64,000 nt of DNA from an uncultured Subdoligranulum sp. (GCA_902496185.1 CABUZX010000001.1:64509-128508), one strand, 5' to 3'; counted from the stretch's first letter, positions 1,178 through 22,967 are shown. The notes: generated from the sequence alone by a model not told the origin. Numbers and translations: made by a program.

Positions 1178-1262
1178 TGGTGGGAAGAGGTGGATTCGAA
1201 CCACCGAAGTCGGTGACGGCAGATTTACAGTCTGCTCCCTTTAGCCACTCGGGAATCTTCCC
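1178..1262 (-). tRNA. tRNA-Tyr (anticodon GTA), long variable arm, encoded CCA
   Basis: The reverse complement reads GGGAAGATTCCCGAGTGGCTAAAGGGAGCAGACTGTAAATCTGCCGTCACCGACTTCGGTGGTTCGAATCCACCTCTTCCCACCA. The acceptor stem is GGGAAGA/TCTTCCC, the anticodon loop CTGTAAA, and the T arm GGTGG-TTCGAAT-CCACC. Confidence 0.9.
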
Positions 1263-1271
1263 ATATATTCA

Positions 1272-1347
1272 TGGAGCTGGTGAACGGAATCGAACCATCA
1301 ACCTATTGATTACAAATCAATTGCTCTGCCAGTTGAGCTACACCAGC
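1272..1347 (-). tRNA. tRNA-Thr (anticodon TGT), encoded CCA
   Basis: The reverse complement reads GCTGGTGTAGCTCAACTGGCAGAGCAATTGATTTGTAATCAATAGGTTGATGGTTCGATTCCGTTCACCAGCTCCA. It folds as a cloverleaf with anticodon stem ATTGA/TCAAT and loop TTTGTAA. Confidence 0.9.
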
Positions 1348-1364
1348 AAGTATTTTATAAAAAA

Positions 1365-1440
1365 TGGTGCCTCGGGGCGGAATTGAACCACCGACACGGG
1401 GATTTTCAGTCCCCTGCTCTACCAACTGAGCTACCGAGGC
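1365..1440 (-). tRNA. tRNA-Phe (anticodon GAA), encoded CCA
   Basis: The reverse complement reads GCCTCGGTAGCTCAGTTGGTAGAGCAGGGGACTGAAAATCCCCGTGTCGGTGGTTCAATTCCGCCCCGAGGCACCA. The anticodon loop is CTGAAAA. Confidence 0.9.
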
Positions 1441-1444
1441 ATTT

Positions 1445-1521
1445 TGGCGACCTGGAAGGGACTCGAACCCTCGACCTCTAGCGTGACAGGCTAGCGTTCT
1501 AACCAACTGAACTACCAGGCC
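1445..1521 (-). tRNA. tRNA-Asp (anticodon GTC), encoded CCA
   Basis: The reverse complement reads GGCCTGGTAGTTCAGTTGGTTAGAACGCTAGCCTGTCACGCTAGAGGTCGAGGGTTCGAGTCCCTTCCAGGTCGCCA. The anticodon stem is CTAGC/GCTAG and the loop CTGTCAC. Confidence 0.9.
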
Positions 1522-1552
1522 AAAAACTGTTTATATATGCGTTAGGTTGCGT

Positions 1553-1629
1553 TGGTGGGCCTTCAGGGACTCGAACCCCGGACCAATCGGTTATGAGCCG
1601 ACCGCTCTGACCAACTGAGCTAAAGGCCC
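1553..1629 (-). tRNA. tRNA with CAT anticodon (elongator Met or lysidine-modified Ile2; not initiator), encoded CCA
   Basis: The reverse complement reads GGGCCTTTAGCTCAGTTGGTCAGAGCGGTCGGCTCATAACCGATTGGTCCGGGGTTCGAGTCCCTGAAGGCCCACCA. G1-C72 is paired and the anticodon stem has no triple G-C run, so it is not tRNA-fMet. I cannot separate Met from Ile2 by eye. Confidence 0.85.
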
Positions 1630-1634
1630 TCAAA

Positions 1635-1711
1635 TGGTCGGGGTGAAGAGACTCGAACTCCCGACCCCATGGTCCCAAACCACGTGCGCTACCAAACTGC
1701 GCTACACCCCG
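1635..1711 (-). tRNA. tRNA-Pro (anticodon TGG), encoded CCA
   Basis: The reverse complement reads CGGGGTGTAGCGCAGTTTGGTAGCGCACGTGGTTTGGGACCATGGGGTCGGGAGTTCGAGTCTCTTCACCCCGACCA. The acceptor stem is CGGGGTG/CACCCCG and the anticodon loop TTTGGGA. Confidence 0.9.
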
Positions 1712-9422: not shown

Positions 9423-9797
9423 TTATTTTTTTAAGGCGTCAATCAAAGACCCTGCAACGTCAACTACTTTTTCAAGAGCACTTTCTTCTTCGAATTTAAT
9501 CAATTTTATTCCGTCTTTGTTTGTGATTAAAAAGCCAACGGGACTTAACGTTGCGCCACCACCGCTACCGCCTGCAAAATTTGAATCACCTTCAGTTTGT
9601 TTTTTCTTTTTATCGTACTCTCCGCCACCAGCAACAAATGCGAAAGATACTTGCGATATCGGCAAAATCGTACTTCCGTCAGAGCTGATAAATGGTTGCC
9701 CCAAAATAGTATTTGTTTCCGCTGCTTTTTTGATATTAATGATAGACGATTCAACTATTTGTTCAATTGGATTTTGAGTATAATTTTGAACTTGCAT
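9423..9797 (-). CDS. ytfJ: Sporulation protein YtfJ (GerW family)
   Basis: It has the glycine-rich core GGSGGGATLSPVGFLI typical of YtfJ/GerW. The SD AAGGAGAG lies upstream. Confidence 0.85.
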   Translation of the reverse strand: MQVQNYTQNPIEQIVESSIINIKKAAETNTILGQPFISSDGSTILPISQVSFAFVAGGGEYDKKKKQTEGDSNFAGGSGGGATLSPVGFLITNKDGIKLIKFEEESALEKVVDVAGSLIDALKK

Positions 9798-10362
9798 TTT
9801 TCTCTCCTTGTTTATTACTTAATTGATGTTTAATCCATTCCTTTATTAATAAGAATATTGAACTATACACAGATAAGTACATTGATATTTTTGAATAATA
9901 ATTATTAACCTTAATCTTCATCTTAGTATTTGTAAAATAATTTTTTAAACCGACTTCTGCCATGTACAAAACTGCACAAAGAGCGCTAATTCCTTTAACG
10001 TATTTTGAGTATTCTATTAAATCTATATCAACGTTTATTATAGAAGTAATACCCCTTATTGCTTTGATTATCCAAGTGTTTTTCGGTTTTGAAAACTTAA
10101 TTTCATCAAACTTAATTAATTTTTTTTTGATTGTATATATTTCTATTTGCTTATTGTTTAGATCAACTTTTATATTTGCTAAATTTATTATAAAAAATAT
10201 TTTTAACTGTAAATATAACGTATTATTTTGCTTTTCAAAGCTGATTCGTAAATTGGCAACAATAGGCACTACTAAAAATATTATTGAAAATATTAACAGT
10301 ATCATACTATTAGTTTTTTTAAAAGCAAAAAAAATATGCGTTAAATTTAGCGCATATTTCAA
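9763..10362 (-). CDS. Membrane-anchored hypothetical protein, probably YtfI-like (DUF2953)
   Basis: It has one N-terminal TM segment and an Ile/Lys/Asn-rich body. It lies directly upstream of ytfJ, as ytfI does in B. subtilis. The family call rests on context and architecture only. The ORF-track start is TTG, and an ATG at 10305 is the alternative. Confidence 0.55.
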   Translation of the reverse strand: MKYALNLTHIFFAFKKTNSMILLIFSIIFLVVPIVANLRISFEKQNNTLYLQLKIFFIINLANIKVDLNNKQIEIYTIKKKLIKFDEIKFSKPKNTWIIKAIRGITSIINVDIDLIEYSKYVKGISALCAVLYMAEVGLKNYFTNTKMKIKVNNYYSKISMYLSVYSSIFLLIKEWIKHQLSNKQGEKNASSKLYSKSN

Positions 10363-13973: not shown

Positions 13974-14582
13974 TTAAATTAATGAAAAAAGAGTCCTAAT
14001 AAGTAAAAATATCACTAAAGTAAATATCAAAGATAAAATCAACATTACAATTAAAACAATTAAATAAAACTTTATCAGACATAGTATTTCGTATTTCTCA
14101 GCAATAAAAGAACAGGGTTGGTTTTCTCCACTAAAGCAAAATGAAAGGTAGGTAAAAAATACTAAGCTAAAAAATATAATTAAAGCTACGAGCAAATACC
14201 CCAACCCTATTATCCCCAAAACTGAAAATACCGATACTATTAAAATTGCAAAGCTTATTCCGTTACAAAGAGTAATGACAAACATACCCCAGCGAAAGTT
14301 TTTAAATATACTTAGCAGAAAAATGCATATAAGAATTTTTAGGTATAACAAAAAAACTTTTATAAAATAAGGAAAAAAACCTGTTTCTTTAACAATAAAC
14401 AGATTTCCGTCCTTACCTCCCCAAAAAAGCCAATCAGCATTTAACAAGGTATCGCTAAAAATAAACCCAAGCACTAATCCAATCAAAAAAACTACCGCAA
14501 AAATTATTAAATAAATAATATTATTAAATACAATTTGCTTTACGTCTTCTATCCAACATTTGATCTTAGTTTTAATATTCAT
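13974..14582 (-). CDS. Multi-pass membrane protein of unknown function (SpoIIM-like topology, not verified)
   Basis: A short cytoplasmic N-terminus is followed by about five hydrophobic helices. No motif is diagnostic. The SpoIIM resemblance is by size and topology only. Confidence 0.6.
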   Translation of the reverse strand: MNIKTKIKCWIEDVKQIVFNNIIYLIIFAVVFLIGLVLGFIFSDTLLNADWLFWGGKDGNLFIVKETGFFPYFIKVFLLYLKILICIFLLSIFKNFRWGMFVITLCNGISFAILIVSVFSVLGIIGLGYLLVALIIFFSLVFFTYLSFCFSGENQPCSFIAEKYEILCLIKFYLIVLIVMLILSLIFTLVIFLLIRTLFSLI

Positions 14583-18948: not shown

Positions 18949-20775
18949 TTAGATATTGTTTTTTATTAAGTTAATTAAATTTTCCGAAGTAATCCCAAAT
19001 TGTTTTAATTGCTCTAAAACAGTAGCATGTTTTACGAATTTGTTATTTACGCCAAGATGAATAATTTTTTTAGGATAAAAATTTTTATTTGAAAAATACG
19101 TATCAATCATTGAACCAAATCCAGAAGTTAACATTCCTTCTTCAATCGTAATAATCAATTTAGCATTTTTTAAAGTTTGTAGCAAGTATTCGTCAAGCGG
19201 TTTTACAAAATAAGCATCTACTACACATAGGGAAATTTTTTCATTTTTCAATTCTTCCATTGCATTGATAGACGCTAATAATGCATTATTACCTACTGCT
19301 AATATAACAAAATCAGCATATTTGTCTCCAAAAACAGCCCAATGATTTGCATCAAAATCAGCCGAAAATTCTTTTGGCAAAAGCATTTCGCTTTTAGGAT
19401 ATCTTATTGCAATGGGTGAATACTGCGTTGCGCTCCAAATTAATATTTGTTTTAACTGCTTTGATGAAGATGGAGCCAAAATTTTGATGTTAGGAATAGA
19501 AGACAAGAAACATATATCAAACAACCCCTGATGGGTTTGACCATCTTCTCCTACAAATCCAGCTCTATCGATACAAAAGGTTACTGGTAAATTTTGTAAA
19601 CATACGTCGTGTATTATTTGGTCGTATGCTCGTTGCAAAAAAGTAGAATATATGGCAACGTAAGGTTTCATTCCTTGTACTGCAAGCCCCGCAGAAAAGG
19701 TAACTGCATGTTCTTCGGCTATACCTACGTCAAAAAATTTATCAGGAAATTTTGTCCTAAAATCCGCAGTGCCCGTTCCGTCAGCCATAGCTGCCGTAAT
19801 TACCGTTATTTTTGGGTTGTCAACCGCCAAATCACACAAAGTAGAGCCAACTATTTTTGACATAGTAATTGATGATAATGCATTTTTTGATGATATGCCA
19901 TGAAATTTGTTAGGTTCATTTTCTGCCGGGAGATATCCTTTCCCTTTTTTTGTAATGACGTGTAAAACAGTAGGTTTATCAATATTATTTTTGATTTCTC
20001 TTAAATAAAATATAAGCTCCTTTACGTCATGACCGTTAACGGGACCAATATAGCGTATATTAAAATTCTCAAAATAAATATTATGCAATTTCTTCAAACG
20101 GATATTTCTAACCATTTTTGTCCCCATTTTTAACAAGGGTTTGCCAATCAATGGTAATTTACTTAAAAACTTTTTAGTATTTTTCTTTAAACGCAAGTAT
20201 TTTTTACTTACTCTAACTTTAGAAAGATTTTTTGTAGCGCTACCCACGTTTTTATCTATTGCCATATTGTTATCATTTAAGACAATGAACATTTTTGTGT
20301 CGCCAATAGAATTTAAACCTTCGTACGATAGTCCACCTGTCAATGAACCGTCACCTACGACAGCAACGACGTCGAAAGAATGATTTTGTATATCGCGCGC
20401 TTTAGCAATACCTAACCCTGCAGATATTGCAGTACTGGCGTGCCCTACCCCAAAAACATCATATATAGACTCTTCTATTGTGGGAAATCCTGATATTCCA
20501 TCCTTTTTTCGTAAAGTAGCAAACTCTTTTTCTCTACCCGTTAAAAGTTTATGAACGTAAGCTTGGTGTCCTACGTCCCATACTATTTTGTCAACATCAT
20601 CAAAAACGTAGTGAAGTGCTACAGTTAACTCCACTACGCCCAAATTGCTTGCCAAATGCCCGCCGTTGTCCATTACTGTCGTCAAAAGTTTTTCACGAAT
20701 TTCACTACAAAGTTCGGGCAATTGATTAATATTTATTTTTTTTAAATCGGTAGAACTTAAAATATTTTCTAACAT
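18949..20775 (-). CDS. dxs: 1-deoxy-D-xylulose-5-phosphate synthase
   Basis: It has thiamine-diphosphate motifs (GHASTAISAGLG, GDGSLTGG) over a full-length Dxs layout. The ATG overlaps the upstream stop as TAATG. Confidence 0.93.
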   Translation of the reverse strand: MLENILSSTDLKKININQLPELCSEIREKLLTTVMDNGGHLASNLGVVELTVALHYVFDDVDKIVWDVGHQAYVHKLLTGREKEFATLRKKDGISGFPTIEESIYDVFGVGHASTAISAGLGIAKARDIQNHSFDVVAVVGDGSLTGGLSYEGLNSIGDTKMFIVLNDNNMAIDKNVGSATKNLSKVRVSKKYLRLKKNTKKFLSKLPLIGKPLLKMGTKMVRNIRLKKLHNIYFENFNIRYIGPVNGHDVKELIFYLREIKNNIDKPTVLHVITKKGKGYLPAENEPNKFHGISSKNALSSITMSKIVGSTLCDLAVDNPKITVITAAMADGTGTADFRTKFPDKFFDVGIAEEHAVTFSAGLAVQGMKPYVAIYSTFLQRAYDQIIHDVCLQNLPVTFCIDRAGFVGEDGQTHQGLFDICFLSSIPNIKILAPSSSKQLKQILIWSATQYSPIAIRYPKSEMLLPKEFSADFDANHWAVFGDKYADFVILAVGNNALLASINAMEELKNEKISLCVVDAYFVKPLDEYLLQTLKNAKLIITIEEGMLTSGFGSMIDTYFSNKNFYPKKIIHLGVNNKFVKHATVLEQLKQFGITSENLINLIKNNI

Positions 20776-21470
20776 TATTTTTTAGAAAAAACTGATAATA
20801 CTTTTGCAAGTGAAAGTATTATTTTGGTAGCGTTTTTAATTGCTAATTTCTTACCTAACGCCTTGCCTGTAATCATTACTGCAGCAATTAGAGTGCTACA
20901 CAATACGCTTATTATCAAATATTGAGTTTGGTGTTGAATTGCCATTACCGCCACTATTGCCGCACCACAGGCGCCGGAAATAATACCGCAAATATCCCCT
21001 ATCACGTCACAACAAATACTGCTTACAACGTTTGCATTTTTTGCTAATTTAACAGCAAGTTTTGCACCTTTAAGTTTTCGTGCTGACATAGCCAAAAACG
21101 GTTCTGGATCGCAAGAAGTTGATGCTACGCCAATCATATCAGAGATTATTGATACTACAACGATCAGTATAATTAATATATACGCAATAAAAACGTTTTT
21201 TGCATCAATTTCACCAATAACCAACTGTGAAAGAATACCAAATAAAAAAGATAAAATAATTGTCATCAAACATACTGTTAAAATCCAAGGTATTTTAATT
21301 TTTTTTTGATGTTTCTTTTGGTTTAATTGTCGTGGTTTTTTTAATAACGCACCTTCTTGTTTAATGTTTTTTGTTTGTTTTTTTATTTCGGAAAAATCCC
21401 CCGTACCACTCGGAGGATTACCGTCACTTGTGTCTGTCAATTCTTGTGTTTCTTTTTTTTGCGTATTCAT
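20775..21470 (-). CDS. oapA: Four-TM membrane protein in the position of OLE-associated protein A (OapA)
   Basis: A Lys/Gln-rich hydrophilic N-terminus of about 60 aa precedes four hydrophobic helices (e.g. VVSSICCDVIGDICGIISGACGAAIVAV). It lies immediately downstream of the OLE-like RNA and is translationally coupled to dxs. The family call is by context and architecture. Confidence 0.7.
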   Translation of the reverse strand: MNTQKKETQELTDTSDGNPPSGTGDFSEIKKQTKNIKQEGALLKKPRQLNQKKHQKKIKIPWILTVCLMTIILSFLFGILSQLVIGEIDAKNVFIAYILIILIVVVSIISDMIGVASTSCDPEPFLAMSARKLKGAKLAVKLAKNANVVSSICCDVIGDICGIISGACGAAIVAVMAIQHQTQYLIISVLCSTLIAAVMITGKALGKKLAIKNATKIILSLAKVLSVFSKK

Positions 21471-21494
21471 ATTTCAAACTATTAATAAACAAAT

Positions 21495-22090
21495 TTTATT
21501 TGGTGGTAACAAAATAAGTAAACCTTACGGCATAAGGTTCAGTAGGATTTCCCCCTCGAATACTCTCCGTCGCCAGAAAAAAGCAGTTTCCTTTTAAATC
21601 CAAGGATGCGTCGTCACCTAACGCACAACTGAATCGCCACTAAGTCCGTACTATAATCCCTATTTTGTCTCTAAAAAACAGTCTAGAAGTTTTCCTTAAC
21701 AAATTGTAAATCATCTATCTTCTTTTGCAATATCAATTTCATTAAGCAATCTCAATATCAAATCGGCCAACTCAATATTTTGTGTTCTTAAATCCCAAGA
21801 CATCACTCAAAGCAGGCTACTCTGTACACAGCTTTTTATTCACCGCATAGCAGGTTTAATCTCAATCAGTAATTTCGCTTAAAACTACTCTTACCAAATT
21901 AAGTCTCCACGAACAACGGGATAGGAAATATGCCATTAAATCTTACCCATAATTCTTAACTCCCAGCACCACCCCCTGTTTGGGCAACAGAGGGAAGCAC
22001 AAGAAACTTCATCGATGTGCCCTTTGACGATAATTTATCCCCGCCTTCAATGATTTAGTATTTGACTAGAATACTGCACCACCAATTCAT
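21495..22090 (-). ncRNA. ole: OLE (ornate, large, extremophilic) RNA candidate
   Basis: The gap between ispA (stop 22140) and oapA (start 21470) is 669 nt and free of credible ORFs. It is locally G+C-rich (33 of 60 in 21961-22020). It contains many hairpins (22057-22075, 21972-21994, 21606-21626, 21521-21539). An 8-bp long-range helix joins TTGGTGGT (22085-22078) and ACCACCAA (21507-21500). The genomic context is the one published for OLE. The ends are approximate. Confidence 0.75.
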
Positions 22091-22095
22091 ATTTT

Positions 22096-22124
22096 ATATT
22101 AACATATTTTTTTTATTTTTGCAA
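22096..22124 (-). promoter_or_regulatory. Sigma-A type promoter immediately upstream of the OLE-like RNA
   Basis: On the - strand: TTGCAA (22124-22119), 17 nt, TGT-TAATAT (22101-22096). The predicted start near 22089 is just 5' of the closing helix. Confidence 0.5.
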
Positions 22125-22139
22125 GTATTAATTATCCAA

Positions 22140-22967
22140 TTAGTCAAAAATCCTTTTTAAAACTTCATCTAGCCTTGTTTTGAGAAAATTAAAGGTATTT
22201 TTTGAAAAGTTGTCATTTAATTTATTTAGCAAAATATTTGCTTCTTTTGCGATTATAAATATTACTTCTTTTGCCTTTTCATAACTAAAAAAAGTTAAAA
22301 TTGAAGTTTTTTGCGTATCTTCATCTTTATCGAATAAATCGTCAACAAATTGGTAAATCAAACCTAATTTAACACAAAATTCAGCCAATAATTTTTTTGT
22401 ATCATTTGTTGCCCCTGCCAATATAGCTTGAGAAACGACGGAAGCGCAAATTAATTGCGAGGTTTTTAATTTCGATAATTTTTTATATTCATCAAAAGTC
22501 AAATTTTCGTTTAATACGTCTATTGATTGGCCGTAAATCATACCTCCAAATCCTGCGCACTTAAAAATATACTTTGACGCATCAAAATAATTTTGTTCCG
22601 CTTTTCCACCTACAATTATTTCTATAGCAGAAGTTAATAGTCCGTCACCAGCCAAAACCGCTTGCGTATCTCCAAATTTTTTTTGACAAGATGGTAAACC
22701 GCGGCGCTCATCAGCATTATCCATACAAGGTAAATCATCATGAATCAGTGAATAATTGTGTATCAATTCCACAGCTACAGCCAAGCGATGCGCATTTTTA
22801 TTGGTTGCGTTTTTAAAAGCTTTAGCCGTATCTAAAGAAAGCAAAAACCTAAAACGCTTTCCTCCAGCAGATATTGCATATAGTCCTGCATTTAACGCAA
22901 TACAGTCGGTAGGATAATTTTTGCCGGCCATTTGACTATACATTTTTTCAAAATTTAATTCAATCAT
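22140..22967 (-). CDS. ispA: Polyprenyl (farnesyl/geranyl) diphosphate synthase
   Basis: The first Asp-rich motif is LIHDDLPCMDNADERRG and the second Asp-rich region is YQFVDDLFD. It follows xseB, as in Bacillus. Confidence 0.88.
   Translation of the reverse strand: MIELNFEKMYSQMAGKNYPTDCIALNAGLYAISAGGKRFRFLLSLDTAKAFKNATNKNAHRLAVAVELIHNYSLIHDDLPCMDNADERRGLPSCQKKFGDTQAVLAGDGLLTSAIEIIVGGKAEQNYFDASKYIFKCAGFGGMIYGQSIDVLNENLTFDEYKKLSKLKTSQLICASVVSQAILAGATNDTKKLLAEFCVKLGLIYQFVDDLFDKDEDTQKTSILTFFSYEKAKEVIFIIAKEANILLNKLNDNFSKNTFNFLKTRLDEVLKRIFD

Follow-up and report, generated by a model that had tools for sequence, protein, structure and literature searches.

The spacer between ispA and a membrane-protein gene in a 64,000-nucleotide (nt) stretch of DNA from an uncultured Subdoligranulum sp. 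(GCA_902496185.1, CABUZX010000001.1:64509-128508; the whole stretch is referred to here as the window) almost certainly contains a bona fide, full-length ole gene, which specifies OLE RNA (Rfam RF01071) and stands next to its partner gene, oapA. A first-pass annotation made from the sequence alone had put forward OLE RNA for this spacer and had named the Rfam covariance model as the decisive check. RF01071 gives a significant full-length match on the minus strand of the window, from 22098 to 21487, with a score of 407.1 bits (gathering score, 50 bits) and an E-value of 3.9e-116; model positions 1–616 of 616 are covered and the match is not truncated. The only other Rfam matches in the window are tRNAs. 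Canonical pairs are formed at 135 of the 155 pairs of the model, and the window agrees with the consensus at 220 of its 249 highly conserved (upper-case) positions (88%). Because the first ~8 model positions overlap the −10 box of the promoter, the mature RNA probably extends from about 22090 to 21500. The locus comprises the following elements.

22140–22967, minus strand: ispA, farnesyl diphosphate synthase family, upstream neighbour of OLE.
22096–22124, minus strand: ole promoter of the sigma-A type, with a −35 element TTGCAA at 22124–22119, a 17-nt spacer and a TG-extended −10 element TGTTAATAT at 22104–22096.
21487–22098, minus strand: OLE RNA gene, 612 nt, as matched by RF01071.
20775–21470, minus strand: oapA, 231 amino acids (aa), whose start codon follows the Rfam match by 16 nt and the terminal helix P1 by 29 nt.

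The secondary structure was examined in a MAFFT alignment of the window sequence with 112 other OLE sequences (113 in total), whose median identity to the window is 61%; the family was sampled with a conserved 19-mer, which matches at least 120 OLE loci from species genomes. As controls, the same helix was scored with a slid partner. Helix names other than P1 and P13 were mapped from published text descriptions rather than from figures. Over the 113 sequences, every Rfam helix is 76–100% canonical, with many double (compensatory) changes, except for distal P9, which reaches 53%. We attribute this low value to misalignment of a length-variable stem, as the MAFFT alignment under-scores variable stems such as this one.

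Three long-range helices close the molecule: P1, the helix taken to be P2, and P3 with P3.1. The pairing of the two ends of the spacer, UUGGUGGU with ACCACCAA, had been pointed out in the first-pass annotation and proves to be the covarying P1 stem (94.8% canonical, 192 double-change cells, slid controls 30–64%). P1 does not appear in the consensus structure line of Rfam, and published OLE 5′ ends map close to its start. The second helix, CAGU-[AUU]-CUAG with CUAGACUG (positions 22–33 with 413–421), is near-invariant and 99.7% canonical, with slid controls of 22–46%; the name P2 is inferred. P3 (35–39 with 395–399) is 89.7% canonical with 51 double-change cells, and P3.1 (43–49 with 385–391) is 87.0% canonical with 262. 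The slid controls for these long-range helices lie mostly at 22–64%, with one at 70%. In the window, P3 and P3.1 amount to 5 + 7 = 12 bp, and the published length is likewise 12 bp, for a helix that has been proposed to span the membrane (PMC12265935). The locus can serve as a worked example of how covariation brings out the long-range P1, P2 and P3 helices that the Rfam consensus structure lacks. All helices lie on the minus strand.

22078–22085, minus strand: 5′ strand of P1, UUGGUGGU, pairing with 21507–21500.
21500–21507, minus strand: 3′ strand of P1, ACCACCAA, pairing with 22085–22078.
22066–22077, minus strand: 5′ strand of the helix taken as P2, G-CAGU-[AUU]-CUAG, pairing with 21686–21678 (CUAGACUGU).
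22050–22064, minus strand: 5′ strands of P3 (CAAAU) and P3.1 (AAAUCAU), pairing with 21714–21700 (AUGAUUU..AUUUG).
22026–22045, minus strand: P4 hairpin with loop L4, stem 98% canonical.
21960–22006, minus strand: P5, a long hairpin of 20 bp with loop GCCCA, 97% canonical, 14 pairs with double changes.
21911–21955, minus strand: P6/P6.1 hairpin with loop AAUGGCAU, whose GGCA is complementary to UGCC of L5.
21903–21861, minus strand: P7 hairpin, 76% canonical, 17 pairs with double changes.
21853–21822, minus strand: P8 hairpin, 83% canonical, 11 pairs with double changes.
21718–21813, minus strand: P9 long arm, with a palindromic GGCC loop at 21768–21765.
21508–21697, minus strand: 3′ domain, P10–P15, helices 93–100% canonical with double changes.

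The sequence strings and coordinates quoted in the first-pass annotation are all present in the window, and of the four hairpins that it drew from them, two are family features. CCCUCUGUU/AACAGGGGG (21994–21972) is the inner part of P5 (98.3% canonical, 193 double-change cells, slid controls 29–58%), and GUGCGU/ACGCAU (21626–21606) is P13 (92.2%, 282 double-change cells, slid controls 27–47%). The other two are not conserved outside the clade of close relatives described below. AGUAUU/AAUACU (22075–22057) is rejected, being 51% canonical with one double-change cell and slid controls of 12–75%; its 5′ arm is part of the helix taken as P2 and its 3′ arm part of P3, and where A-to-G changes affect the shared bases within the clade, it is P3 and not the hairpin that shows the compensating change. 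AACCUUA/UAAGGUU (21539–21521) is rejected as a family feature (64% canonical, no double changes, slid controls 11–55%) and clashes with two helices that are 99–100% canonical; the sequence does not vary in the clade, which is therefore uninformative about it. The proposed alignment of OLE representatives thus upheld P1, inner P5 and P13 and failed two of the four hairpins. Folded on its own, the segment 22090–21495 reaches −158.5 kcal/mol (z = −2.1); of 100 shuffled sequences, 4 match or better this energy. The minimum-energy fold of the segment joins both ends. Together with the E-value of the Rfam match and the conservation of spacer DNA in the clade, this indicates structure beyond chance.

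A promoter just upstream had also been noted. TTGCAA-17-TAATAT is present, with the −10 hexamer at 22101–22096 and TG at 22104–22103. It scores 8/12, below the threshold of the consensus scan, and in that scan promoter-like sites were not in excess over shuffles. The core of the site is nonetheless invariant: TTGCA and T.T..TA..AT, spacing included, are the same in all nine clade loci, and the surrounding spacer varies. Across the 113 OLE loci, a site scoring at least 10/13 occurs within the 80 nt upstream in 73%, compared with 3.7% of shuffles, and the −10 element mostly ends 14–18 nt ahead of the GGUGGUG anchor. Experiments in B. halodurans have shown that high expression of OLE is driven by a proximal promoter (PMC3413148). 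We infer that transcription in the window starts at ~22090–22088, just ahead of P1. There is no terminator between OLE and oapA, the sole terminator-like match on the minus strand being the P13 hairpin itself.

The genes around the RNA are those of the published OLE operon. Pfam and NCBIfam confirm the order nusB-folD-xseA-xseB-ispA-OLE-oapA-dxs-nadK-argR-recN that the first-pass annotation had read, as part of a minus-strand run that begins with spoIIIAA-AH and an asp23-family gene ahead of nusB and continues past recN to spoIVB. The 231-aa membrane protein between OLE and dxs is, judged from its sequence features, OapA. A simple hydropathy scan finds four hydrophobic segments (about 60–82, 92–114, 148–178 and 184–203), in keeping with the four transmembrane helices claimed earlier, and basic clusters lie in the loop 119–150 (six Lys/Arg) and in the C-terminal tail (eight Lys/Arg). 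The protein matches the CNNM family PF01595 weakly (E = 4.6e-4, 20.3 bits, below the cutoff of 28.4) and is without CBS or CorC domains; the literature describes OapA as distantly CNNM-similar. It has 1125 homologues, many of them ~190 aa long and annotated DUF21, and many carrying PF01595. A DxxxD motif, said to distinguish OapA from CNNM domains, reads DVIGD at residues 155–159, and both aspartates are invariant in 101 of 101 ORFs (open reading frames) adjacent to and downstream of OLE. In 100 further OLE loci, the first ORF past the RNA aligns with the window protein.

Eight OLE-bearing loci of the same lineage were reached through OapA homologues, and all have the layout ispA-gap-oapA. Their OLE sequences score 411–458 bits with RF01071. 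Relative to the window, OLE DNA is 80–94% identical within the lineage, compared with 64–82% for the DNA of ispA, oapA and dxs. OLE is the most constrained part of the locus and is under purifying selection. Proteins of related OapA clusters (51–66% identical to the window protein) are named at NCBI as those of Christensenellales, Eubacteriales or Clostridiales metagenome-assembled genomes (MAGs); where contig names state a source, it is human gut metagenome, and further sample labels resemble codes of gut studies. The window also contains spoIIIAA-AH, spoIVB and ytfJ. The host thus appears to be an uncultured, spore-forming gut lineage of Christensenellales, a taxonomy that rests on the names of homologous proteins from related clusters. 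The sporulation genes and homologue names agree with the anaerobic or extremophilic Bacillota in which the OLE family is found. The 19-mer used for retrieval also matched contigs labelled Streptomyces, Succinivibrio, Pseudomonas and candidate division TA06 (L034, L079, L100 and L118), and L100 was a full-length OLE on extraction; non-Bacillota matches of this kind have been attributed to transfer or mis-binning (Fernando and Breaker 2024).

Most of the loops to which function has been assigned are kept. In the cryo-EM structures of OLE dimers, the GGCC loop of P9 (L9.3) makes a symmetric kissing contact, bridge B3, and the L5/L6 kissing contact is bridge B2; the palindromic GGCC is retained in the window at 21768–21765, and L5 UGCC and L6 GGCA are complementary. 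The nucleotides of the kink-turn-forming junction are identical to the consensus. By its published definition, the binding site of the partner protein OapB consists of a GNRA loop and one bulged nucleotide (PMC7936274). P13 carries a GUGA tetraloop at 21617–21614 on a nine-base 5′ strand and an eight-base 3′ strand; the exact bulged base is ambiguous. This loop, with its one extra base on the 5′ strand, is a putative OapB site. The GCGA tetraloop of P14.1 is likewise present. P6.1 is reduced, only two or three A-U pairs of its stem being left. With U-A in place of C-G as the closing pair, the bS21-associated CAA motif reads UAA.

Several observations weigh against this identification. Eight full-length sequences that belong neither to the clade nor to its two nearest MAGs score 481–558 bits, above the 407 bits of the window; six of the eight come from cultured strains (Clostridium, Alkaliphilus, Caloramator, Alicyclobacillus and others). 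By this measure the OLE of the lineage, at 407–458 bits, is full-length in type and somewhat divergent. Of the model pairs, 20 are non-canonical, and most of these fall in P7, P8 and distal P9. L4 in the window reads GAUAAAUU and has a run of three adenines in place of five. A candidate for oapB (KOW-like product) or oapC (L7Ae-type product) was not found in the 64-kb window, in which 40 of the ORFs were scanned with Pfam; no L7Ae-type protein is among these. Finally, the membrane-spanning model to which the length of P3/P3.1 speaks is a proposal only in the literature.

It is very unlikely that the region acts mainly in cis, as a long structured 5′ leader controlling the translation or stability of the oapA-dxs message. 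The absence of an intrinsic terminator between OLE and oapA fits such a role, as does the position of P1, only 29 nt from the oapA start codon with no clear Shine-Dalgarno sequence visible, and the conserved promoter directly upstream would also drive oapA. However, the window sequence is a full-length member of a family that in other species has been shown to build up as one abundant RNA species of great stability, working through a ribonucleoprotein, and conservation spans ~590 nt and some 25 helices, which is far more than a leader needs.

Less probable still is a decaying, non-functional OLE remnant in a host-associated genome. A bit score below those of eight more distant sequences, 20 broken model pairs, an altered L4 and a shortened P6.1 could all be read as signs of decay, and reduced OLE variants are known from gut lineages. 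Against decay, the spacer is more conserved than the flanking genes over the nine clade loci, substitutions within the clade are compensatory in P3/P3.1, and P7, P8, P9 and the P13 tetraloop are all present, next to an oapA that is intact and conserved and behind a promoter that is conserved as well. That the spacer hides a small protein-coding gene or pseudogene can practically be dismissed: besides a 77-aa plus-strand ORF (21364–21597) there are several minus-strand ORFs of 22–35 aa, but no ORF exceeds one sixth of the region, the 77-aa ORF extends antisense into oapA, and variation takes the form of covariation in paired helices rather than of changes at third codon positions.

Other statements about the spacer, set beside the OLE gene that we take it to contain, held to different degrees. 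The absence of a credible ORF was borne out, the longest minus-strand ORF within the spacer being 35 aa, and a conserved coding frame was not seen in homologous loci, in which the helices carry compensatory changes instead. The distance from the ispA stop (22140) to the oapA start (21470) is indeed 669 nt on the minus strand, and the other gaps among greedily chosen ORFs are at most ~260 nt, as claimed, but with one exception, 1040–1892. That gap contains an array of six tRNA genes (1181–1711, minus strand). The claim of a G+C-rich segment stands locally, as 21961–22020 holds 33 G+C, a count reached by only 0.8% of 60-nt intervals. For the whole segment "far more G+C-rich" is rejected: OLE has 37.4% G+C versus 34.7% for the window, and 23% of intervals of equal size are as rich. 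Nor does a G+C content of 35% make the host unusually AT-rich, as had been suggested.

Comparison with characterized OLE systems places the window OLE firmly within the known family. It shares with the OLE of Halalkalibacterium (Bacillus) halodurans, the representative best known from genetics and biochemistry, the RF01071 family, the length class, the position between ispA and oapA, a proximal promoter just ahead of P1, an identical GUGA loop on P13 with a one-base bulge, and GCGA on P14.1. It differs in host, an anaerobic gut Christensenellales MAG lineage as opposed to an alkaliphile, in the sequence of L4, and in the distance from bulge to loop in P13, which is 1 or 3 nt in the window (ambiguous) and 2 in H. 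halodurans. The window also has no tlyA/rrmJ-type gene between dxs and nadK, where H. halodurans, we presume, carries one. The OLEs of C. acetobutylicum and C. botulinum, known as cryo-EM dimers (PDB 9MCW, 9LCR), resemble the window OLE in the 5′ domain P3–P9, with L5 UGCC/L6 GGCA, a GGCC loop on P9, P3 + P3.1 of 12 bp, and kink-turn junction nucleotides as in the consensus. They differ in L4, CUAAAAA in the Clostridium RNAs and GAUAAAUU in the window, and in P6.1, which is reduced and closed by U-A in the window.

Two reduced OLEs of gut bacteria, variant 1 (TANB77) and variant 2 (RF39), have been described (Fernando and Breaker 2024). Their hosts, like that of the window, are uncultured gut Bacillota known only from metagenomes. 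The RNAs differ: at 612 nt, the window OLE matches the model over its full 616 positions and has P7, P8, a long P9 and the tetraloop of the OapB site. With P7, P8 and the long P9 present, it is therefore of the full-length type and neither variant 1 nor variant 2. On the protein side, the systems to compare are OapA and the CNNM-domain Mg2+ transporters MpfA and CorB; the window protein matches PF01595 below threshold, in line with published descriptions of OapA. The window protein has the four hydrophobic segments, DxxxD and basic cytoplasmic clusters expected of OapA and, at 231 aa in total, lacks the CBS and CorC domains of the transporters.

The only unusual points of the locus are the changed A-rich loop L4 and a long, basic N-terminal extension of OapA. 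In the family, L4 is highly conserved without being a defining feature: it is CUAAAAAU in 101 of 113 sequences and has five adenines in a row in 103 of 113, the usual form being [G/C]CUAAAAA. In the window, three adenines stand beside a self-complementary AAUU, and the clade relatives have AAAAU, AAACU or AAAUU. L4 forms bridge B1 of the cryo-EM dimers through four inter-chain A-A pairs; with GAUAAAUU in place of CUAAAAA, these four pairs would probably not all form as described. The lineage pattern GAUAAA[A/C/U]UA was found in L105, L121, L123–L130 and L136–L151. A metagenome scan for the variant pattern gave only 16 loci, all AAAAU, with four adenines in the loop. The OapA extension is 54–78 aa long, lysine-rich and marked by a conserved PPS motif; where the ORF call is complete, seven of the eight clade loci (plus the window) show it. 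By comparison, the median number of residues before the first hydrophobic segment is 12 for the 91 proteins that accompany an OLE with the consensus L4. In the window OapA the extension comprises residues 1–58 and is hydrophilic (for example, DGNPPSGTGDF), as it is in L123 and L126–L130.

The two changes raise the idea that this gut Christensenellales lineage has a distinct subtype of OLE particle, defined by the shift of L4 from CUAAAAAU to GAUAAA[A/C/U]UA plus the OapA extension. We regard this as doubtful. Shared ancestry confounds any link between the L4 variant and the OapA extension, and individual loci separate the two: L105 combines the variant loop with just 17 residues ahead of the first hydrophobic segment, and in L001 a long OapA extension goes with the consensus L4 loop. 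The wider group of L4 variants also mostly keeps four adenines. Should the changes in L4 and OapA be linked, this lineage would have an OLE particle with a differently built dimer or membrane interface. Either way, the altered L4 and extended OapA of the clade can be used as natural variants for testing models of OLE dimerization and membrane spanning.

How the window OLE would work can be sketched from published studies of H. halodurans and two Clostridium species, from which each step is drawn. The RNA would be made from its own promoter, starting at ~22090, and in addition by read-through within the operon; with no terminator, transcription would continue into oapA-dxs. The product would be a stable RNA of ~590 nt bounded by P1. 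Its 5′ domain (P3–P9) could homodimerize via L4, via the contact between L5 and L6, and via GGCC in the P9 loop. The RNA would bind dimers of the four-helix, CNNM-like OapA and be held at the membrane, and the 12-bp P3/P3.1 helix might cross the bilayer. By analogy, the ribonucleoprotein would help the cell to cope with short-chain alcohols, cold, excess Mg2+ and poor carbon sources, and the particle possibly acts together with a CNNM-like transport function of OapA.

The RNA class is known, not new, as the first-pass annotation itself had stated. The description of OLE RNA dates from 2006, and its catalogued representatives run into the thousands, some of them in MAGs labelled Christensenella or Christensenellaceae; the operon, the promoter, the partner and uncultured gut Bacillota as hosts have all been published before, and the standard Rfam model detects the locus. 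The window OLE adds no new kind of element. Its practical use is in annotation: the spacer can be annotated as ole, and the downstream hypothetical protein as oapA.

Other parts of the window allow some minor observations. Two minus-strand ORFs inside the sporulation and segregation gene run, 13974–14582 (202 aa) and 9763–10362 (199 aa), have no Pfam or NCBIfam match at E ≤ 1e-5. The rimP-nusA-ylxR-infB-rbfA operon (36611–41363, minus strand) has no gene between ylxR (39494–39748) and infB (36611–39481), where, we take it, Bacillus carries the L7Ae-type gene ylxQ; there is therefore no OapC-like candidate at this position. Between ispG (43047–44099) and rimP (40893–41363, 98 nt downstream), where we would presume polC from Firmicute gene order, there is no room for a polymerase domain; the position is occupied by a 541-aa minus-strand ORF (41462–43087) that contains an OB fold and a DEDD exonuclease only, corresponding to positions 408–586 of the 1445 of the PolC model.

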